This document shows, one piece after another, positions 619 to 12,693 of a DNA stretch of 55,103 nucleotides. Origin of the DNA: Candidatus Babeliales bacterium (GTDB taxonomy: Bacteria; Babelota; Babeliae; Babelales; JABCYS01); the NCBI GenBank assembly GCA_016929235.1, contig JAFGJD010000002.1, forward strand, positions 1 to 55,103, given 5' to 3'. The notes under the pieces were generated by a model. It was not told the DNA's origin. It did no database searches and worked only from the letters and a program-made list of their open reading frames with translations. The translations under genes were made by a program, and so were the position numbers. Position 1 is the first letter of the stretch; each line of letters opens with the position of its first letter.

Positions 619-2187
619 TTACAAAAATTTTAGTTTCTTAAGTGCGAGCGTACTCACCACCCCAACAAAGGTGCTCAATGCGAGGTATAACACTAAACCC
701 GATGAAAGACTGACCGAAAACGCACCGAATACTAATCCCATCACCAACGCTGAAATACGCGCTTGCCCCCCACCAGCAGGTGCTGGCATCAGCACCATGG
801 AGAGACATGTTGCAATAGGTAGGATGTAATATGGATCAGGTGCAGATAAATCGGGGATCCATAAAAATGGAACTTTATATAAGGCTAATGACGAACGCAA
901 AATAGACGCGAGTGCAAAAAAGATCGGCATCTGGAGTAATGACGGCAAGCAGCCGATCATTGCGCCGAATTGCTCCTGTGCAAGCTTCATTTGTTCTTGT
1001 TGAAGTTTTTCAGGATCATTCTTGTATTTGCGTTTAATATGTTCTTCTTTCTTTTTTAAGTTGCCTATTTTCGATGTCGTTTTTTGTTGACTAAAGCTCA
1101 ACGGAATAAGCAAAAGCCTAAACAAAATGGTAAGTAGCACAATTGCCCAACCAAAGTTATGCGTTCGCGTGTTGAACCATCTCAAAAGCTTCAAAATCGG
1201 TTTGGCAATAAAACCAAGCCATCCATAATTCAAAAGAGATTCAAGCCGCTTATCGACGCCAGCAATAGCTTTCTGCTCCTTTGGCCCGAGGTAAAATGAA
1301 AGATTCCACGTTGTTTCTTTTGAAATCACTGGGCCTTCTAATATTGGAGCAATACGTTCCGGTTCAACTTTAAAATAACCGCGTTGAGCAAAATTATGAG
1401 CATCATGAATCATAGCTGTAGCGAAATATCTACTCGATGCACCAAACAACGTTGGCTGTTTCCATATTTCATCATCAAGCGTTCGCACTGACCGACTTCG
1501 TGCGTACTGCATAATCGGCTTATGTAGCTCTTGCACAATGCCACCAATCTGTTCATTACTAGAGTTTTCCGCAAGATAAGGCGAAACAAAGAATAGTCTC
1601 GCCTGAACCCCATCTCCATGCGGATCTATCGTTAAGGAAAGATCTAGCTGATGCTTATCTTTGTGGAGCGTAAAGAGCTTCGTAATAGCTCCTCGCTCAC
1701 TGTGTCCGTGGTACTTGAGTACAACCTTCAGCTCATCTTCATCATGTGAGACAAGTTCATAGTAGAATGGTGTTTCTCTGTCGAGTGCAATTAAAAAAGG
1801 ACTTTGTTCTTTCTCATAGAGTGTTAGGTCAGGAAGTGTTGCAAGCCATTGCGGATGCTGCGTATTGCCATGCCGAAAATCAGCTTTTCGTAGCGATGCG
1901 CCATAGGATGAAAATGTAAATCTTCCATAGCTGGTGATTACATCGGTAAGGGCTTCTTTTTGGGCCTTCCCGTCAGCAAAATCAATTTCCTTATTAACTG
2001 TAATTATCTCCTCCTGCTGCTCTGATTCAGGATTCGATGGGCCCATGAACATACTCAGCATCCAGTTAAGCGTGAATGCTGCCGCAGCAATAAATAAGAT
2101 ATCCTTTGTTTTTAAGGAAAAACGCTGAATCAACCATTGTCCTACAAAAAAAAGGCCGACCCACAATAAAATACTTGCTATATTCAT
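619..2187 (-). CDS. yidC: Membrane protein insertase YidC
   Basis: Large periplasmic domain followed by the YGWLGFI...NFGWAIVLLTILFRLLLIPL, GCLP.L.QMPIFFAL and WIPDLSAPDPYYILP core motifs. Confidence 0.95.
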   Translation of the reverse strand: MNIASILLWVGLFFVGQWLIQRFSLKTKDILFIAAAAFTLNWMLSMFMGPSNPESEQQEEIITVNKEIDFADGKAQKEALTDVITSYGRFTFSSYGASLRKADFRHGNTQHPQWLATLPDLTLYEKEQSPFLIALDRETPFYYELVSHDEDELKVVLKYHGHSERGAITKLFTLHKDKHQLDLSLTIDPHGDGVQARLFFVSPYLAENSSNEQIGGIVQELHKPIMQYARSRSVRTLDDEIWKQPTLFGASSRYFATAMIHDAHNFAQRGYFKVEPERIAPILEGPVISKETTWNLSFYLGPKEQKAIAGVDKRLESLLNYGWLGFIAKPILKLLRWFNTRTHNFGWAIVLLTILFRLLLIPLSFSQQKTTSKIGNLKKKEEHIKRKYKNDPEKLQQEQMKLAQEQFGAMIGCLPSLLQMPIFFALASILRSSLALYKVPFLWIPDLSAPDPYYILPIATCLSMVLMPAPAGGGQARISALVMGLVFGAFSVSLSSGLVLYLALSTFVGVVSTLALKKLKFL

Positions 2188-2737: not shown

Positions 2738-4126
2738 ATGTATAATAAGAAAGCGCACCTTCATTTTGTTGGTATCGGTGGTATTGGTATGAGTGGTATT
2801 GCCAAGGTACTACGCTATCAAGGCTATACAATTTCAGGTTGCGACCTGGATATGAAACAAATGAGTATTACCGAACTAAAAGAACTCGGTTGCGCCATCA
2901 GCCATGGTCACAATACCGCTATCTGTCAAGATCAATCTATTGATATCTTAGTTTACTCGTCTGCAGTGAAGACAACCAATCCCGAACTTTTGGCAGCACA
3001 AACACGAGGCATTCCAACCATTCCTCGCGCACTAATGCTTGCAGAATTAATGAGAACAAAATATTCAGTTGCAATCGCAGGATCACACGGGAAAACCACA
3101 ACAACATCCATGATCTCGCATGTGCTCATCGAAGCTGGGCTCGATCCTACCATTATTATTGGCGGTCATCTTAAAAACATCTCGGCTCATGCGCGCTTGG
3201 GTAAGGGAGATTTTCTTGTTGCCGAAGCAGATGAAAGTGATCGCTCATTACTCAATTTGCAAGCAACCATGGCGGTACTTACTAATATTGATCTAGAACA
3301 TCTAGAAACGTACACAGATCTTGATGATGTTAAGGCAACATTTACACGTTTTTTAAATAATCTTCCATTTTATGGAAAAGCATTTCTATGCATTGATGAC
3401 CCGAACATTCAATCAATTCTTCCAATCGCACACCTCAAAACAATCAAATATGGATTCTCTCAGGAACTTGCGGATCTCTTTGCAACTAATGTTATCTTGA
3501 ATGTGGATCATTCAACGTGTGTAGTAGCTACAAAGCAAGGAGAGCTTGGGCCTATCATCATTCCAATGCCGGGACGTCATAACGTCTTGAATGCCTTAGC
3601 AACTTGCGCCTTAGCTCGAGAATTGGGCGTCACCTTCGATATGATCACGCAGGCTCTTGCATCGTTCAAGGGCGTAGAACGGCGATTCAGTTATAAGGGG
3701 ACATTTGCAGGCGCAGAACTGTTTGATGACTATGGACATCATCCGGTCGAAATAAAAAACACGCTCGAAGTTGCACGAAAACGAACACAAGGAAATTTAA
3801 CAGTCGTATTCCAACCGCATCGGTACTCACGAACACACAAGCTATGGGAACAGTTCATCGACATGTTCTTAGAAAGTAATATAGATCACCTCATCATCAC
3901 CGATATTTATGCAGCAAGTGAAGCTCCTATTGCAGAAATTACTGGTGAAAATTTCGTCAAAGCAATACGCCAACGCAATCCAAGATTCACCATTCATTAC
4001 GCTCCCTACGAAGAGACGTTCCACGAAATCAAAAAAATTCTCACTCAACTCGCTCGTCAAAACGACCTAATTCTGTTACAAGGTGCGGGCAAGATCAATC
4101 AACTCGCAGAGGACCTCGGAACCTAA
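2738..4126 (+). CDS. murC: UDP-N-acetylmuramate--L-alanine ligase
   Basis: GIGGIGMSG, GSHGKTTT, EADESD, DDYGHHP.EI and FQPHRYSRT motifs. Confidence 0.97.
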   Translation: MYNKKAHLHFVGIGGIGMSGIAKVLRYQGYTISGCDLDMKQMSITELKELGCAISHGHNTAICQDQSIDILVYSSAVKTTNPELLAAQTRGIPTIPRALMLAELMRTKYSVAIAGSHGKTTTTSMISHVLIEAGLDPTIIIGGHLKNISAHARLGKGDFLVAEADESDRSLLNLQATMAVLTNIDLEHLETYTDLDDVKATFTRFLNNLPFYGKAFLCIDDPNIQSILPIAHLKTIKYGFSQELADLFATNVILNVDHSTCVVATKQGELGPIIIPMPGRHNVLNALATCALARELGVTFDMITQALASFKGVERRFSYKGTFAGAELFDDYGHHPVEIKNTLEVARKRTQGNLTVVFQPHRYSRTHKLWEQFIDMFLESNIDHLIITDIYAASEAPIAEITGENFVKAIRQRNPRFTIHYAPYEETFHEIKKILTQLARQNDLILLQGAGKINQLAEDLGT

Positions 4127-6507: not shown

Positions 6508-6933
6508 TTATTCAGCAGCCTGTTCTATTGCCGCTTCAGGAGCCTCTTGTGCAACTTCTACTTGATCTCGTGCCACGATCTTTTCTTTCACACGACCTGC
6601 CTTACCAACGCGATCACGAAGGTAGTACAGTTTTGCTCTGCAGACATCACCCTTGCGTTTGAGAGTGATTGAATCGATGACAGGAGAATAAAAAGGATAG
6701 ATACGCTCTACAGGAACACCGTTTGCTCCGATTTTTCGGACAGTAAACGTAGAGGATGCACCATTATGCTTAATACTGATGACATCGCCTTCAAAAGCCT
6801 GGAGTCGTTCTTTATTTCCTTCTTTGATGCGCTGCGATACAACAATGCGATCACCGGCAGCAAACTGAGGGAAATCTCGCTTGTATGCTCCGAGGTCACG
6901 AATAGTTTCTTTGGTAAAATGTCCTGCTTTCAT
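6508..6933 (-). CDS. rplS: 50S ribosomal protein L19
   Basis: [34 protein letters not shown]. Confidence 0.98.
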
Positions 6934-7023: not shown

Positions 7024-8325
7024 TCATATCCGCTTGCGATTCCACCCAAGCCAGCGGTCAAAAATAACCGCTACTGCCGAACGCACAGACAAATGATTAA
7101 ATTCTGTAAAACCCGCTACCGGCAGCAATAGATAGTCACTTGAGGCAACAACCTCCGGTGCCAACCCCCTTCCAGTTCCAAATACAAGGAGAACTGGCCG
7201 CTCCTGAGACCAAACATCACCTTGGTCATAGTAGGTAATGAGCGATGGATGATCAACTTCTCGTGCCGATGTTGCTATGATCAGAGGCTTCTTTCCTTCT
7301 CTTGCCTCAATCTCCATAAGCACTTCTGATAGATTATTTTTAAGCGCAACCGATGCCAGAGCCTCTGCTCGTTGGGCATTGTAAGTTACTCCCTTACCCT
7401 CTTGCCAGAAGTCGAGCAGCGTCTGTGCTATCTGCTGCTGATCCTTTAATGGAGAAACTAAAAAGTATCCATCAAGACCGTATGTCCTTGCTGAACGAGC
7501 AATATCATGAATATCCAACGATGTAATCGAGGTTGTCCCCACCCGGTCCTGGTCAACAATCACATCACTATGCATTAATACAGCGTAGTGAGATGGAATG
7601 CATGATTTTCCTAAATTCTTTTGATGCTCGGTCATGGGACTAGTACGAAACCAGTCAAAGTGCTCCTTGATCGTCTTATAAGCTGCCTGACTTTCTCGCC
7701 ATTTTTGAAGCTCAGCATGGTTACCTGAGAGCACCACATCCGGCACCTTTTTACCGCGCCATTCCACTGGTTCAGTGAATTCTGGATAATCAACAAATGG
7801 CCCAGAAAATGAATCCTGCTCAACCGATTCTTTACGACCGATTACACCCGGAATATGTCGTAGCAATCCTTCCAAGAACAACATAGCTGGGATATCTCCG
7901 CCCATAACCACAAAGTCACCAACCGATATAACTAAGTCGGCATACTCCTGTTCCACGCGAGCATCCATACCCTCATAACGGGAGCTTGCAAGGATAACGT
8001 GATCATAGGACTGGATCTTTTTAGCAGTTGCTTCAAGGAGAGGTTGGTCAAGTTTTTTACCCTGTGGCGAAAAGAAAATACGAAACGATTTGCCATGCTT
8101 CTTATCCTGTGACGCAATTGCATCCTCTACAACACGAGGCTTAATCAACATGCCTGACCCATGCCCACAGGTAGGAGCATCGATACGCTCCTTTGGCTTT
8201 ACAAACGAAAAATAGCTCGTGACGTCAAACGAAACGAGCTTCTTTTCTTGAGCTTTTTTAACGAGACTTGTGGCAAGGAATGGACCGAATATCTCTGGGA
8301 AAACGGTCAGAATTGATATGTTCAT
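7024..8325 (-). CDS. trmD: tRNA (guanine37-N1)-methyltransferase TrmD fused to a C-terminal SPOUT RNA methyltransferase domain
   Basis: N-terminal RYEGMDARV, ISVGDFVVMGG, VPDVVLSGNHA; C-terminal TTSITSLDIHDIARSARTYG, FGTGRGL, FNHLSVRSA. Confidence 0.93.
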   Translation of the reverse strand: MNISILTVFPEIFGPFLATSLVKKAQEKKLVSFDVTSYFSFVKPKERIDAPTCGHGSGMLIKPRVVEDAIASQDKKHGKSFRIFFSPQGKKLDQPLLEATAKKIQSYDHVILASSRYEGMDARVEQEYADLVISVGDFVVMGGDIPAMLFLEGLLRHIPGVIGRKESVEQDSFSGPFVDYPEFTEPVEWRGKKVPDVVLSGNHAELQKWRESQAAYKTIKEHFDWFRTSPMTEHQKNLGKSCIPSHYAVLMHSDVIVDQDRVGTTSITSLDIHDIARSARTYGLDGYFLVSPLKDQQQIAQTLLDFWQEGKGVTYNAQRAEALASVALKNNLSEVLMEIEAREGKKPLIIATSAREVDHPSLITYYDQGDVWSQERPVLLVFGTGRGLAPEVVASSDYLLLPVAGFTEFNHLSVRSAVAVIFDRWLGWNRKRI

Positions 8326-8564
8326 GCACCCTTGGCATATTTCTTTTGGAGCTTCTTGACGGCATCGCTTGCCTGGGCGCCCTTAGCAATCCATTCCTGA
8401 ATACGATCTTTTTCAAACTTCACAAATGTACCAGTCAACGCTTCATAGGTTCCAAGATTGTCAATGTATTTCCCGTCACGGCTTTGGCGCGAGTCCACAG
8501 CCACGATACGATACACAGGTGCCTTTTTCTTACCAAAGCGAGCAAGACGAATTTTTACTGCCAT
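8322..8564 (-). CDS. rpsP: 30S ribosomal protein S16
   Basis: MAVKIRLARFGKKK.P.YRIV..DSR..RDG.YI..LG.Y; ATGA overlap with trmD. Confidence 0.98.
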   Translation of the reverse strand: MAVKIRLARFGKKKAPVYRIVAVDSRQSRDGKYIDNLGTYEALTGTFVKFEKDRIQEWIAKGAQASDAVKKLQKKYAKGA

Positions 8565-8593
8565 GCAGAGAGATCCTTATATTGATTCAAAAA

Positions 8594-9022
8594 CTAAATT
8601 TTAGGGAATCCTTTGTTATTCCTGAAAAGTTTAGCATATTGCTGACTTTGTTCAAATCGAGCAAGCATACGGTCAATATCACTCACCGTCACCCCTGCCT
8701 GCCGGGCAACCTCACGCTTACGTGAATTGGTCAATTTTCTATGGTCCATTTGCTCGGCCGGGTCCATCGCTTCAATAATTGCCTTGAAGATCTTCATCTC
8801 CTCTTCACCCCGCTTGATGACCTCAGGCGACAATGCATCCTTGGGAAGCCCGGGCATATACTTAAGCACCTTGCTCAAAGAACCCATCTTGGAGATCATA
8901 TTCATCTGATTTACAAAATCCTTAAGTGTCAGTTTTCCAGACGATGGCTGGTCCAAATGAGGCTGTGGCGGCGTCTCTTGTTTTTTTGTACGTGAAAAAA
9001 TCTTAGAAAGCTTACTAAGCAT
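8594..9022 (-). CDS. ffh: Truncated signal recognition particle protein (Ffh/SRP54 M domain only)
   Basis: LTLKDF..QM..I.KMGSL..VL..MPG and AII..M...E......L..SRK..VA...G match the M domain; no GTPase motifs; canonical ffh position upstream of rpsP; ATG at 9022 after AAGGA. Confidence 0.8.
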   Translation of the reverse strand: MLSKLSKIFSRTKKQETPPQPHLDQPSSGKLTLKDFVNQMNMISKMGSLSKVLKYMPGLPKDALSPEVIKRGEEEMKIFKAIIEAMDPAEQMDHRKLTNSRKREVARQAGVTVSDIDRMLARFEQSQQYAKLFRNNKGFPKI

Positions 9023-9173
9023 TGCATATCCTTGTATCATTATATCGATTGAATCGTCCGTTCAGTATAAGGAACTTTCTATTCATCAGCAACGCGCTAT
9101 TTTACAGATAAGCCGCAAATGAGTACATTTTCGTAGAAACGGAATAAGACCCCATCGCAAGGTTGATAACCCT

Positions 9174-10283
9174 ATGAGTAAAAAAGCAGAACCGATCAAC
9201 ATTGATAAGCCCAAAGTTCTTCTTGTTGGAATACAAGCTCCTTATAATAAAACAAAGTATATAGATTCATACTTTGCTGAGTTTCTTAATCTTGCAAAAA
9301 CCAATCAACTGGAATGGGTCGATGTTTATTTCACCAAAATCAGATCCATTGACGCAAGTACCTTCCTTACTAAAGGCAAATTAGAAGAGATCACTAAACT
9401 GTGTAATGAGCATAATATAGATCACGTCGTTATCTCAGAACCGCTTACAGCGCAACAGGCACGCAACCTCACAGAATTATTTAGCGCAAAGGTCTTTGAT
9501 CGCACACAATTAATTCTCGAAATTTTTGAAAAGGCTGCGCTATCCGCCGAAGGGAAAATTCAGGTCGAGATCGCATTTCTCCAGTACCAAAAATCACGAC
9601 TTGCAGGCCATGGAATCCATATGTCTCAACAGGCTGGTGGGATTGGAACGAGGGGTCTTGGTGAAACCGCTAAAGAGAAAGAATCACGTCATATTGAAGA
9701 ACATATTTTAAAACTAAAAAAGAAATTGCATCAGCTCGAACTGACAAGAGAAACACAACGCAAACAAAGATTGGCAAACCGAATCCCAAACATCTGCCTA
9801 ATCGGATATACCAACGCAGGCAAATCAACCATTCTGAATGCGCTCACCAAGAGCCATGTTCTAGCTGAAGACAAGCTCTTTGCAACTCTTGATACCACAA
9901 CTCGTGAGCTCTTCATCAATGGTGTAAAAAAAGGTGTTATCTCAGATACCGTTGGTTTCATACAACAGCTTCCCACTCGATTGATCGAGGCATTTAAGTC
10001 AACGCTCTCAGAACTTCAATATGCAGATCTTCTTCTCCATGTCATTGATCTCTCAGATCTAAATTGGGAATCACATATCAAGATCGTACACGACATACTC
10101 AATGACCTTAATGTACATAAAGATATTCTGTACGTCTTTAATAAGGTAGATAAAACAGAAGATCTAGAAGCACTGAAACCGGCTCTCAATCCTTATCGTC
10201 CTCAGGTGCTTGTCTCCGCATCAAGCAAGGATGGGCTCGCGGCACTCAAAACATATCTTTCATTTTGGACGCCAGAGCGCTAG
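9174..10283 (+). CDS. hflX: Ribosome-splitting GTPase HflX
   Basis: DRTQLILEIF, G.GTRG.GET, GYTNAGKST, LFATLD, DTVGFI, NKVD. Confidence 0.97.
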   Translation: MSKKAEPINIDKPKVLLVGIQAPYNKTKYIDSYFAEFLNLAKTNQLEWVDVYFTKIRSIDASTFLTKGKLEEITKLCNEHNIDHVVISEPLTAQQARNLTELFSAKVFDRTQLILEIFEKAALSAEGKIQVEIAFLQYQKSRLAGHGIHMSQQAGGIGTRGLGETAKEKESRHIEEHILKLKKKLHQLELTRETQRKQRLANRIPNICLIGYTNAGKSTILNALTKSHVLAEDKLFATLDTTTRELFINGVKKGVISDTVGFIQQLPTRLIEAFKSTLSELQYADLLLHVIDLSDLNWESHIKIVHDILNDLNVHKDILYVFNKVDKTEDLEALKPALNPYRPQVLVSASSKDGLAALKTYLSFWTPER

Positions 10284-10366: not shown

Positions 10367-11737
10367 ATGCTACACCAAATCATCATTCTCCTCACACCTC
10401 TTAAAATATACGCATGGCTTATTACCGCGCTTGCGTTCATGGTTGCTGAGCTTACAACTCCAGGTCTCTTTTTCTTTCTCGCATTCGGCGCCGGATCATG
10501 CATTGGTGCACTCTTGACATGGCATGGATCCCCATTCACTACCCAAGCATCAGGTGCGCTCATCAGCTCACTGATCAGTGTATGGATCCTGCGAAAACTG
10601 TTTGCGCAACATATCAGTGCCAAGCAGCATGTGCGAACAAATTATGAGGCTCTATCCGGCCAAACTGGAATTGTTACCAAAACAATCCAACCGCATCAAA
10701 GTGGATTAGTTAAAACAAAAGGTGAAGTATGGCCAGCAAAATCAGAAACCAACGACTCCATTGCGTCGGAAACCATCGTCTCCGTTTCTCGTATTGTAGG
10801 AAATCATATTATTGTTAAGCCATTGCTACTTCTTTTTGCATGTTCTTCGCTAGGCTCATTACAAGGCGTCGTTACAGACTATTTTACTAAACCCGATGGT
10901 GAGATAATGACTGATGATGAAGTAATAGAAGCATGCTGCAATCCGTCCTATCACCTGCATCATCCAATAAGTCGCATAGAGCGCCTTGCTGAAGCAGATC
11001 GCAACTGGGCGAATCGCCACTACAACGGAGCCACATGCTACTTCTTTACAACTTCAGGTACAAGAGTAAGAGAAGGCGAATTTGATTTTCAAACAACAAT
11101 GGAAGAAATAGATGCTCCTGGTATTGCTGATACATTATTTTTGAGACCTTTTGATGGATTGTCTAATACGCTATACAGGAATGAGGAGGTAGGCAATATG
11201 GTAGCTTCCCAGGATGCTGCGAACTGTATCCCATACATAAAAGCGATATGCGCCATGCGATCAAGAAGTGCAGTATCTCCTACTAATTCTGACGATAGAA
11301 TTGCCAAAGTGAAGGGAAAGAGTGTCACATTAGCCAAAGATTGCCCAGCAGGGACAGATTACCAAGTAGATGCACATTTGGTAGATTTTTCAAACTGGAT
11401 TGCGCTTTCTGAACGGTTTAAATTTGCTGCCGCACATGGTTGCATTACACAAAGATTCCAATTCTCCCCCCTGGAGCATAACTACGAGCTAATGAATCCA
11501 GAATTATACCCTCGCCTTTCTGCTGAAGACTTTAAGAAGGAAATCTATGCCAAAGTTCTTCATAGACGGATAAAAAGAATTGGAATTACAACTTTGATAG
11601 CACTAGCAGCCGCATATGGTTTTAAAAAATTATATACCGCTATATTCACACGCAAGCCAGGGGCTGCTCAAAAACTTGCCGAAAATAAGACTCAATCATC
11701 TCATGAACATAAATGTACTTCAGAGGAGCTATTATGA
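10367..11737 (+). CDS. NfeD/YbbJ-family protein fused to an unknown ~300-aa C-terminal module
   Basis: aa 1-152: three TM segments (AELTTPGLFFF) plus OB-like G.VK..GE.W.A...GNHIIVKP; remainder unrecognised; upstream of an SPFH gene. Confidence 0.8.
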   Translation: MLHQIIILLTPLKIYAWLITALAFMVAELTTPGLFFFLAFGAGSCIGALLTWHGSPFTTQASGALISSLISVWILRKLFAQHISAKQHVRTNYEALSGQTGIVTKTIQPHQSGLVKTKGEVWPAKSETNDSIASETIVSVSRIVGNHIIVKPLLLLFACSSLGSLQGVVTDYFTKPDGEIMTDDEVIEACCNPSYHLHHPISRIERLAEADRNWANRHYNGATCYFFTTSGTRVREGEFDFQTTMEEIDAPGIADTLFLRPFDGLSNTLYRNEEVGNMVASQDAANCIPYIKAICAMRSRSAVSPTNSDDRIAKVKGKSVTLAKDCPAGTDYQVDAHLVDFSNWIALSERFKFAAAHGCITQRFQFSPLEHNYELMNPELYPRLSAEDFKKEIYAKVLHRRIKRIGITTLIALAAAYGFKKLYTAIFTRKPGAAQKLAENKTQSSHEHKCTSEELL

Positions 11738-12693
11738 TCGTCGAAGGATTCATCATCTTTTTTATATGCCTCGTATTGTTTGTTATGCTCACGATTTCGC
11801 GTGCAACCTATCTGGTCCAACAATCTGAGGTCATAGTCGTTGAGCGTCTCGGGAGATTTCATTCTCTATTAACGCCCGGGCTTCATTTTGTCGTACCATT
11901 CATTGATCTACCACGTTCAACAATGTGGACCATGATCAAGCCAACATCGGACAATCACTGGTACCGCTATTATAAAAACGTATCGCGCATTGATCTTCGT
12001 GAAGCTGTGTACGACTTTCCAAAACAAAACGTAATTACCAAAGATAACGTTACAATGGAAATCAACGCACTGCTCTACTATCAAATCACTGATCCCAAGT
12101 GTGCAATGTATGAAGTACAAGATCTTCCTCTTGCTATCGAACAACTTACACAAACAACCTTACGTGACGTGATTGGTTCAATGGACCTTGATGAGACACT
12201 ATCATCACGGAGCCAAATCAATGAACGACTTCGCATCATCCTTGATGAAGCAACCGATAAATGGGGGGTACGGATCAACCGTGTTGAACTTAAAGATGTA
12301 AACCCACCACACGAGATCCGTATTGCGATGGAAAAGCAGATGAAAGCAGAACGCGATCGTCGTGCATTAATTCTTGAAGCTGAAGGCGCAAAGCGCGCCG
12401 CCATCCTGGAAGCAGAAGGCTACAAAGAAGCTAAGATCACACACGCCGAAGGTGACGCTCAGGCACGGCTCAATCAGGTCCATGCAGAATCGGAATCACT
12501 CAAGGTACTTCGCAATGTTCTTCCCGAAAATGCAGATCCAACTGCATACCTCATCGCATTGAATTATATCAAGGCGTTACCTGAAATGATGAAGGGGAAG
12601 GATGACAAGATGATCATTGTTCCGTATGAAGCAAGTTCTTTAGTAGGATCACTTGCAACCATCAAAGAGCTGTTTGATAAAACAAAAAAATAA
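11734..12693 (+). CDS. SPFH/stomatin-like (QmcA/band 7) protein
   Basis: VVERLGRF, ITKDNV, TTLRDVIG, AMEKQMKAER.RRA.ILEAEG; ATG after GAGGAG with ATGA overlap. Confidence 0.93.
   Translation: MIVEGFIIFFICLVLFVMLTISRATYLVQQSEVIVVERLGRFHSLLTPGLHFVVPFIDLPRSTMWTMIKPTSDNHWYRYYKNVSRIDLREAVYDFPKQNVITKDNVTMEINALLYYQITDPKCAMYEVQDLPLAIEQLTQTTLRDVIGSMDLDETLSSRSQINERLRIILDEATDKWGVRINRVELKDVNPPHEIRIAMEKQMKAERDRRALILEAEGAKRAAILEAEGYKEAKITHAEGDAQARLNQVHAESESLKVLRNVLPENADPTAYLIALNYIKALPEMMKGKDDKMIIVPYEASSLVGSLATIKELFDKTKK

Follow-up and report, generated by a model that had tools for sequence, protein, structure and literature searches.

What remains of use in the signal recognition particle (SRP) once its GTPases and its RNA are gone? 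The question is raised by a short gene in the DNA analysed here, a stretch of 55,103 nucleotides that is the whole of contig C8 from a Candidatus Babeliales bacterium, a tiny parasite belonging to the Dependentiae (TM6), and is called the window below. At the place where related bacteria carry ffh, the gene for the SRP protein, the window has an open reading frame (ORF) for 142 amino acids (aa), referred to here as mini-ffh. Its product, mini-Ffh (P0001), consists of the M domain of Ffh behind a short N-terminal extension. The source genome (G000), a metagenome-assembled genome (MAG), comprises 10 contigs with a total of 808,977 bases; its completeness is 99.27% and its contamination 0.29%. 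In bacteria the SRP RNA and the SRP receptor, like the SRP itself, count as near-universal and essential. The reading preferred here, to which we give a probability of roughly 0.6, is that mini-Ffh is a working, minimised Ffh that was retained as a binder of signal or transmembrane segments after the rest of the SRP had been dismantled.

The position of mini-ffh is orthologous to that of ffh. In this order, ffh lies upstream of rpsP, trmD and rplS and is divergent from hflX, and adjacent, divergent ffh and hflX are found in many families (for instance in genomes G040, G021, G012, G038 and G023). The relatives from the same family, G001 to G003, encode a full-length Ffh upstream of rpsP. An earlier sequence-only reading of the window had described an intact frame of about 142 aa in the ffh slot with its own Shine-Dalgarno sequence, and had concluded that the GTPase (NG) domain was absent and that the gene was not a frameshifted full-length one. 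Both descriptions hold. The frame is open, is preceded by AAGGA, and is separated from hflX by 151 nucleotides (nt). The family SRP_SPB (PF02978) is the sole Pfam match of the product (E 3.4e-22; 79.1 bits, the cut-off being 27; profile positions 1-89 of 91), and a Pfam search of the ORF did not find the SRP54-type GTPase G domain (PF00448). When the Protein Data Bank (PDB) was searched with phmmer, mini-Ffh matched M domains of Ffh and SRP54, among them 2ffh and 1dul, with a best E-value of 1.7e-14. The ATG at position 9022 is the start methionine common to P0001 and P0002, a homologue of 147 aa from another study; an in-frame ATG further upstream, at 9040, would give a product of 148 aa (8594..9040, minus strand).

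The manner in which the gene was shortened can be seen from its N-terminus. The first ten residues align without gaps (MLSKLSKIFS in mini-Ffh, MLNRLTSLFT in P0002, MFDFL[ST]xKFS in the native Ffh of the order). Scored with a position-specific scoring matrix (PSSM) of native N-termini, mini-Ffh ranks 3rd and P0002 4th of 980, the background being the N-termini of all ORFs of at least 100 aa in the mini-Ffh protein's own genome. The matrix was built from 26 N-termini, which include three from FtsY and one doubtful row. A new start inside the linker between the G and M domains (GM linker), which is where MAFFT placed the N-terminus, was rejected, because a PSSM of the linker ranks mini-Ffh 58th and P0002 122nd of 980, compared with 3rd and 4th for the native matrix. 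FtsY of this order (L014-L016; G025, G027, G039) itself begins MFNFIKEKF.KIY, which resembles the Ffh N-terminus MFDFLSEKFSSIF; it is without the long acidic A domain, and its frames are about 296-330 aa long.

Because the N-terminus is that of native Ffh, the deletion was in frame, and because G000 keeps the divergent arrangement of ffh and hflX, it lay inside ffh. The native start and about 10-12 codons of the 5' end were kept. Residues ~13-310 were lost, that is the rest of the N domain, the entire G domain, the LGMGD motif and the linker helix. A spacer of 15-20 residues rich in proline, glutamine and lysine now joins the M domain at the sequence SSGKLTL. This spacer is poorly conserved, with an indel of 5 residues relative to P0002, and is predicted to be disordered. 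The short N-terminus had been called basic and amphipathic, and it is indeed basic and moderately amphipathic, with a hydrophobic moment of 0.57 (0.23-0.57 across ten short forms). It may help to hold mini-Ffh to ribosomal RNA (rRNA) or to the membrane.

An AlphaFold2 model computed from 30 sequences predicts a folded M domain, with predicted local distance difference test scores of 84-98 over residues 30-135 and below 50 over residues 1-26. The best Foldseek matches of the model are again M domains of Ffh and SRP54 (2ffh, E 8e-5; 4xco_C, template modelling (TM) score 0.64). It also matches chains of the mL105 type from mitochondrial ribosomes (6z1p_AT, E 0.043 and TM scores 0.54/0.47; 9g6k_Le; 9i05_AI; 8a22_Ub), a likeness to be expected of any M domain.

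Could a normal SRP be encoded elsewhere in the genome? The sequence-only reading had supposed a system working without 4.5S RNA and FtsY, and a search of the whole genome for a full-length ffh, for ftsY and for the SRP RNA gene ffs found none of them. Among 17 candidates scored there is no match to PF00448, with 14 of 14 controls positive, and the four-helix bundle of the N domain (SRP54_N, PF02881) gave 0 matches at E-values up to 0.01. Queried by tblastn with the full-length Ffh of G002 and G003, the genome matched only in the M part, at 37% identity (E 1e-16 to 1e-17). The SRP RNA model of Rfam (RF00169) had no match in the genome. Nothing was found there at E-values up to 10 with R1, a clade-specific covariance model made from 30 SRP RNAs of relatives, although this model does detect the RNA of two genomes that did not contribute to it, G008 (E 1e-12) and G021 (E 3e-15). 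The 22-nt conserved core of SRP RNA likewise had no match in the genome with five or fewer mismatches. In G003 and G001, ftsY is located between two genes, X and Y; in G000 only 98 nt separate these two, ftsY having been cleanly excised. With ftsY and the SRP RNA gene lost too, the GTP-driven targeting cycle is gone.

Of 40 relatives from the same order, 38 have two SRP54 GTPases, Ffh and FtsY, and SRP RNA is present in 38 of the 40, many of them more fragmented than G000. The M domain of 37 of the 40 lies in frames of about 420-520 aa or is cut by a contig end. Among 261 species genomes of the phylum, all of one order, only G000 has an M domain without a GTPase. The genome retains SecY, SecA, YidC and trigger factor. 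A rough hydropathy scan of 745 ORFs counts 71 with at least four hydrophobic segments and 138 with at least two.

A long basic C-terminal tail of YidC that would offset the loss of the SRP was considered and rejected, as the tails are short in all 28 YidCs examined (the longest has 25 residues). They measure 5 residues (+2) in G000, and 10 residues (+2) in G014 and G032. A complex prediction of mini-Ffh with the YidC core (residues 325-522) scored 0.00, the mark being 0.32, which speaks neither for nor against binding.

Within the M domain, what was given up and what was kept can be told apart. The two RNA-contact motifs read SMT..E[RK] and SRK.RIAKG[AS]G in relatives and in solved structures of Ffh and SRP54, and by this standard the altered forms noticed earlier (AIIEAMD and EVARQAG) are real departures. 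Among the 31 full-length relatives, 27 columns of the M domain are at least 90% conserved, and 22 of these are kept by G000 and P0002. The changes S85A, T87D, K89A, R104E and G108Q are the same in both, at columns that are 94-100% conserved in the relatives. The changed positions are presumably the SRP RNA contacts of the E. coli M-domain/4.5S structure. As these five columns were chosen on G000, the 13 other short forms described below are counted apart from P0001 and P0002. They keep columns 85, 87, 89, 104 and 108 in 23 of 65 cells, and the remaining 22 conserved columns in 243 of 286. Taken together, the fifteen short forms keep 87% of cells in non-motif conserved columns; S100 is retained in only 4 of the 15. 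The replacements vary by lineage, being A, V, K, L or N at position 85, E, D, Q or K at 104, and Q, D, T, A, S or K at 108. Because the replacing residues differ between lineages, the alignment looks like a release from constraint at the RNA-contact positions (S85, K89, S100, R104, G108), with the rest of the M domain kept. Motif residues still present in G000 are S100, R101, K102, R103, A106 and G110.

One full-length Ffh of 443 aa, P0009, from the search of protein representatives described below, has a second motif that reads YRKKELAKGAG, with E for the arginine of RIA as in G000, and its C-terminus (FEQAQQYAKLLKNNNF) resembles that of G000. P0009 may stem from a close relative in which erosion of the RNA motif preceded loss of the NG domain.

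The same positions bear on an alternative that we consider unlikely, namely that mini-Ffh has taken on a job unrelated to membrane targeting, such as binding rRNA, another RNA or a protein through a remodelled helix-turn-helix, or acting as a general holdase. The changed residues A85, D87, A89, E104 and Q108 are identical in P0001 and P0002, as would fit such a job. Many basic residues remain in the motif, and divergence from the family was fast and was followed by conservation, both of which would also agree with it. However, the replacements differ across independent short forms, which looks like release from constraint and not convergence, and the positions retained are those of the conserved groove and core.

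Short forms are not confined to G000 and P0002. When a profile of these two was searched against 1.84 billion protein representatives, 1751 matches were obtained at E-values up to 0.001. The best 150 of the 1751 contain ten further 50%-identity clusters of short proteins, of 135-164 aa (P0003, P0004, P0008, P0010, P0012, P0017, P0021, P0023, P0032 and P0042). They share one layout, consisting of a native Ffh N-terminus (e.g. MFDFLSKKIS or MFDFISKKFS), a linker rich in lysine, glutamate and serine, and the M domain. The clusters are rare, with one or two members each, which come from Logan, ENA, NCBI or JGI and are encoded on contigs of 1.2 to 206 kb; the contig of 206 kb is that of P0010. P0042, whose motifs are intact and whose C-terminus is aberrant, is included in the counts.

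A related-locus scan with the two short forms found no relative in metagenome contigs or in genome contigs. A scan of metagenome contigs with an alignment (A5) gave 80 loci, 9 of which have complete short frames without a G domain. The metagenome loci with mini-ffh have GC contents of 0.30 to 0.44, and the gene order of seven of them is given in Table 1. In all, metagenomes contain at least 13 divergent short forms in addition to P0001 and P0002. Two loci, L264 and L281, were rejected as short forms, as they look like frameshift debris, and are left out of the 15. Clusters of ~140-aa proteins with SRP_SPB only in the ESM Atlas were not used either; many are labelled fragments and probably reflect contig ends. 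A second kind of short form, of 116-123 aa (P0063, P0035, P0031; L323 6001-6363), begins at the M domain with MSEKFTLNDF... and has no N-terminal remnant. The example in L323 lies directly upstream of rpsP on a contig of 10.7 kb.

Did these short genes arise once or several times? A tree of TrmD and HflX (36 rows; quick search, with support from the Shimodaira-Hasegawa-like approximate likelihood ratio test (SH-aLRT) only) groups G000 with G001-G003 (support 95), and a smaller tree of the same proteins groups it with G002 and G003 (98). The lineage of G000 thus sits inside family f1, whose other members have a full-length Ffh. Locus L244 falls within a clade of eight with support 100, all other members of which have a full-length Ffh. 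L319 groups with G026 (93), and the position of L280 is not resolved in the tree. The approximately unbiased (AU) test rejects the best tree that unites the four M-only lineages (log-likelihood difference 163, p 2.6e-128). As a lost NG domain cannot be regained, and a single M-only clade is rejected, the reduction to the M domain arose at least twice.

Evidence that the short gene is maintained can be provided by comparison with its nearest relative. Run X2, from another study, contains a contig of 1395 nt with the same short gene at ~88% nucleotide identity, and this contig encodes P0002. It aligns to 8396-8938 with 67 differences in 543 nt. The two proteins are 80% identical overall, and in the M part 101 of 114 residues are identical, all of the unusual motif residues included. 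Over 8597-8764 (56 codons) there are 18 differences in unchanged codons and 8 in 5 changed codons, so that the proportion of synonymous differences (pS) is 0.51, that of nonsynonymous differences (pN) 0.060, and the ratio of the corresponding rates (dN/dS) at most 0.07. The part from 8663 to 8764 (34 codons) has 18 differences in unchanged codons and 6 in 3 changed codons; here pS is 0.79 and saturated, pN is 0.076, and the ratio is not computable. Loci L318 and L319 are identical in the mini-ffh gene and hence uninformative for dN/dS. Between G002 and G003, Ffh is 80% identical, TrmD 77% and HflX 83%. Set beside the 37% identity of the G000 M domain to that of G002 and G003, these values show a gene that changed rapidly once it had been reduced and has since been closely conserved.

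The sequence-only reading had allowed that the gene might be a decaying remnant. The conservation of the short form in a sister lineage at this low dN/dS disfavours that alternative, as does the aspect of real decay in G176, described below. In its fuller form the alternative holds that the M-only gene is slowly dying, with little or no function, and is a way-station to total loss. This appears distinctly unlikely, although the end of such a road does exist in the phylum. Family f12 comprises 16 species genomes in 8 genera (G014, G032, G079-G092; 0.7-1.1 Mb; 13 of them at least 90% complete). None of the 16 has an M domain, an SRP RNA or a match to the short-form profile, and none has an SRP54 GTPase above the cut-off, where one stray match of 18 bits was seen. 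Two of them, G014 and G032 (L060 11211-11663, L061), have rpsP 125 nt from hflX with no ffh sequence between. No M domain, GTPase or SRP RNA was found in G176, of family f4, which is 93% complete. What is left in its ffh slot, directly before rpsP, is a stretch of about 40 codons from the 3' end of ffh ('FIKFEQIQRFVKLLKR'), preceded by stop codons. Two further genomes, G128 and G170, have SRP RNA while their SRP proteins were not found; they are only 61-64% complete, and so the absence is put down to assembly gaps. A single loss shared by G000 and f12 was considered and rejected, because G000 groups with G001-G003 and f12 elsewhere in the trees of TrmD and HflX.

Full loss of the SRP is thus tolerated. 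Since neither f12 nor G176 has an M domain, bacteria of this phylum can dispense with the M-only state, which may be a way-station. The low Pfam score of the G000 M domain, the lowest of 38 matches, and its 37% identity to the family point the same way. Against this, two lineages have preserved the frame at nearly saturated synonymous divergence, with pN only 0.06-0.08, the 15 short forms keep most of their conserved non-motif cells, and the same architecture arose at least twice. True decay in the ffh slot looks otherwise, as G176 with its stop codons and its small fragment demonstrates.

A further alternative, which seems improbable to us, is that the ORF has only a role in cis and survives as a promoter, leader or translational coupling element for the essential operon of rpsP, trmD and rplS. 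Conservation at the nucleotide level lends it some appeal. The block 8512-8662, over the gene end and the spacer before rpsP, has 2 substitutions and 1 indel in 151 nt relative to X2, compared with 24 in the next 100 nt, and the last 22 codons of mini-ffh show no synonymous change. This block is possibly a promoter or leader of rpsP. The sequence TTGAAC-N16-TAAACT can be read on its minus strand; a consensus scan of 8200-9300 found no minus-strand sigma-70-like site. The vestige in G176, which lies just before rpsP and is all that is kept there, would also agree with a role in cis. Such a role does not explain the purifying selection at the amino-acid level upstream of 8663, where synonymous changes are near saturation, or the whole fold kept in 15 forms, and f12 manages with rpsP close to hflX and no ffh sequence at all.

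That misassembly or an incomplete MAG merely hides a normal SRP is scarcely credible: the assembly has 10 contigs and MAGs often miss RNA genes and repeats, but G000 is nearly complete with little contamination, three distinct components are lacking, the neighbours of ftsY have closed up, the junction recurs in the output of an independent assembler, a second study has the same short gene, and SRP RNA was found in 38 of 40 relatives of which many are more fragmented. The second assembly comes from run X1, where a 24,678-nt Logan contig spans 7900-10300 with 0 differences to the window; X1 is probably the source sample, so that this is an independent assembler and not independent data. To the extent that contigs can tell, assembly error is excluded. 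Mini-ffh is not covered in the two metatranscriptome runs from the source study, which says nothing about its expression.

The preferred reading, a minimised Ffh that still works, involves the following steps. An in-frame deletion took Ffh residues ~13-310, comprising most of the N domain, all of the G domain and the GM linker up to about its middle. What stayed of the 5' part were the native promoter, the start codon and the codons for ~10 residues, now joined to the M domain via the disordered spacer. Loss of ftsY and of the SRP RNA gene ended the GTP-driven cycle. The fold of the M domain was preserved, as were almost all of its conserved positions in core and groove, the RNA-holding positions being freed. 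Mini-Ffh would then still bind, in its conserved groove, the hydrophobic signal or transmembrane segments of nascent chains, probably at the exit of the ribosomal tunnel, the usual site of the Ffh M domain. There it would hold them for SecYEG and YidC, which the genome retains along with SecA and trigger factor. While the architecture, the missing partners, the purifying selection, the recurrence in other lineages and the relaxation confined to the motifs are observed, we infer signal binding, ribosomal location and hand-over, leaning on the mitochondrial proteins mL105 and MAP67, which are compared below.

Several points weigh against this reading. The strongest is that SRP-free life is possible in the phylum, so that keeping the M domain alone may bring only a mild benefit. 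Besides having the lowest Pfam score, the G000 M domain is 37% identical to that of G002 and G003, compared with 57% for TrmD, 65% for HflX and 66% for RplS, and divergence of this extent could reflect relaxed constraint or an altered function just as much as adaptation. The basic motif residues R101, K102, R103 and R107 remain, and some RNA binding is possible. The dN/dS of at most 0.07 derives from 40 of 161 difference rows and 56 codons, the rows of the X2 contig being unbroken over 8430-8762. Conservation of the 3' end (8603-8662) is at the nucleotide level and may serve rpsP expression and not the protein. The M-only group for the AU test was defined with the tree already known, and lineages of mini-Ffh other than that of G000 are known from contigs and not from whole genomes. 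A wider account, in which several Dependentiae lineages independently cut Ffh to a GTPase-less, RNA-free M domain that was selected as a signal-binding factor at the ribosome exit, and others then lost it wholly, is put forward tentatively, as possible rather than probable.

The features on which the argument draws are collected in Table 1.

Table 1. Features of the mini-ffh locus and of related loci. Positions are those of the window unless a locus is named.
Feature	Position	Strand	Basis or remark
mini-ffh coding sequence, 142 aa + stop	8594..9022	-	ORF; Pfam SRP_SPB; identical to P0001
Shine-Dalgarno-like AAGGA	9029..9033	-	6 nt upstream of ATG at 9022, by sequence
Residues 1-14 (MLSKLSKIFSRTKK), remnant of native Ffh N-terminus (start of helix N1)	8981..9022	-	Alignment, PSSM
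Residues 15-28, Pro/Gln-rich spacer (QETPPQPHLDQPSS), replaces Ffh residues ~13-310	8939..8980	-	Alignment with full-length Ffh
Residues 29-142, M domain (signal-peptide-binding domain)	8597..8938	-	Pfam, PDB matches, model
Degenerate RNA-contact motif 1, AIIEAMDPAEQ	8750..8782	-	Relatives AIISSMTxKER; S85A, T87D, K89A
Degenerate RNA-contact motif 2, SRKREVARQAG	8693..8725	-	Relatives SRKxRIAKGAG; R104E, G108Q
Nucleotide-conserved block: last 22 mini-ffh codons, spacer, first rpsP codons	8512..8662	-	Comparison with X2 relative
Divergent intergenic region mini-ffh/hflX, 151 nt	9023..9173		Ancestral divergent layout of ffh and hflX retained
hflX (GTPase), divergent neighbour	9174..10283	+	Pfam GTP-bdg_N, GTP-bdg_M, MMR_HSR1
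rpsP (S16), next in operon	8322..8564	-	ORF; orthologues in relatives
trmD fused to SPOUT-type Methyltrn_RNA_4 domain (PF09936), 433 aa	7024..8325	-	Pfam
rplS	6508..6933	-	Downstream of trmD, same strand
yidC, 522 aa; tail after last hydrophobic segment 5 residues (KLKFL)	619..2187	-	
ffh vestige of G176	L324 (G176:C3) about 3230-3350	-	Pseudogene remnant in ffh slot
Mini-ffh in metagenome loci	L280, L318, L319		hflX (divergent), mini-ffh, rpsP, trmD
Mini-ffh in metagenome loci	L305, L323, L302		mini-ffh, rpsP
Mini-ffh in metagenome locus	L244		mini-ffh, then trmD, rplS

The trmD fusion has the same length in 41 of 41 genomes of the order searched. In genus g3 (G003, G002; L058/L062), ffh and hflX are separated by an insertion of 4-7 kb with 4-7 genes on the plus strand, some of which are tandem paralogues of ~300 aa; it is absent from G000 and most other families. 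Beyond hflX, the window encodes a protein of 456 aa (10367-11737, plus strand) that has an NfeD-like domain of the C-terminal type near its N-terminal third, followed by a long unannotated extension. The overlapping ORF of 326 aa (11713-12693, plus strand) resembles an SPFH/band-7 partner on the evidence of its residues.

No paper on SRP loss or on an M-only Ffh in Dependentiae was found among PMC open-access papers and bioRxiv. The findings concern a 0.8-Mb bacterium with ~70 ORFs of at least four hydrophobic segments and yet no SRP GTPase cycle, and a sister family of 16 species without any SRP component. An M domain that stands alone under purifying selection in several lineages argues that capturing signals, probably at the ribosome exit, is of use even where GTPases, RNA and receptor are gone. 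If this is true, the M domain does something useful outside the targeting cycle. Dependentiae would then be a natural, repeated experiment in the dismantling of the SRP and a living model for the path from Ffh to mL105/MAP67. Until now the idea has rested on the mitochondrial proteins, whose origin lies more than 1 billion years back. The bacterial mini-ffh genes are young, still lie in their operon and have full-length sisters for comparison. The steps of SRP reduction are thus testable in E. coli or in cultivable systems of Dependentiae and amoebae.

How does mini-Ffh compare with other departures from the standard SRP? There are insect endosymbionts with extremely reduced genomes (well under 300 kb) that lack ffh and ftsY, and that lean on the host or on a co-symbiont. 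Like G000, they have lost SRP components naturally during genome reduction; their genomes are far smaller, and we know of no M-only Ffh reported for them. SRP mutants of Streptococcus mutans are reportedly viable with YidC2, and mitochondrial Oxa1 is said to have a ribosome-binding tail. These cases agree with the present one in that the SRP cycle can be dispensed with where Sec and YidC are at hand. They differ in the long basic C-terminal tail of YidC or Oxa1, the tails here being short (Table 1 and above), and in being laboratory mutants or organelles and not natural bacterial lineages.

Canonical Ffh and mini-Ffh share a homologous M domain, the slot before rpsP, trmD and rplS, and the same first ~10 residues. 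Canonical Ffh is about 430-450 aa long and mini-Ffh 142 aa; the latter is without N domain, G domain, SRP RNA and FtsY, and its RNA-contact positions are replaced. Closer to it in one respect are cpSRP54 of seed-plant chloroplasts and mtFfh of some protists, where loss of the SRP RNA goes along with mutation of the two M-domain motifs, according to the work summarised in PMC8321541 (Trager et al. 2012, cited there). The RNA motifs are thus mutated in these proteins as in mini-Ffh. Unlike mini-Ffh, whose system is without the whole GTPase cycle, they keep the NG GTPase and the FtsY receptor, and cpSRP54 has gained cpSRP43.

The closest analogue of mini-Ffh, closer than cpSRP54, is mitochondrial MAP67/mL105. 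The structure account of Tobiasson & Amunts (2020, PMC7326499) places mL105, which is without an NG domain, at the tunnel exit, with a C-terminal helix that enters the tunnel. As described by Tobiasson et al. (2022, PMC9576764), mL105 occupies the site that the M domain of Ffh has in E. coli, and it touches density attributed to the insertase Oxa1. MAP67 has been proposed to derive from mtFfh via internal deletion of the N and G domains, and the family is reported to be essential in two apicomplexans (Pyrih et al. 2021, PMC8321541). In both systems an Ffh-derived M domain stands alone, with no NG domain and no SRP RNA, and the predicted fold of mini-Ffh matches the mitochondrial chains listed above (6z1p_AT, 9g6k_Le, 9i05_AI and 8a22_Ub). 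The mitochondrial proteins are eukaryotic, nuclear-encoded and ancient, may coexist with mtFfh, and are stable ribosomal proteins; mini-ffh is bacterial, and lies in the ffh operon slot with its native start. Because it derives in place, as its slot, its native N-terminus and its full-length relatives in f1 indicate, it does not share common descent with MAP67. Having arisen recently and repeatedly inside Babeliales, mini-Ffh is an analogue and not an orthologue of MAP67/mL105, that is, its bacterial, recurrent, in-place counterpart.

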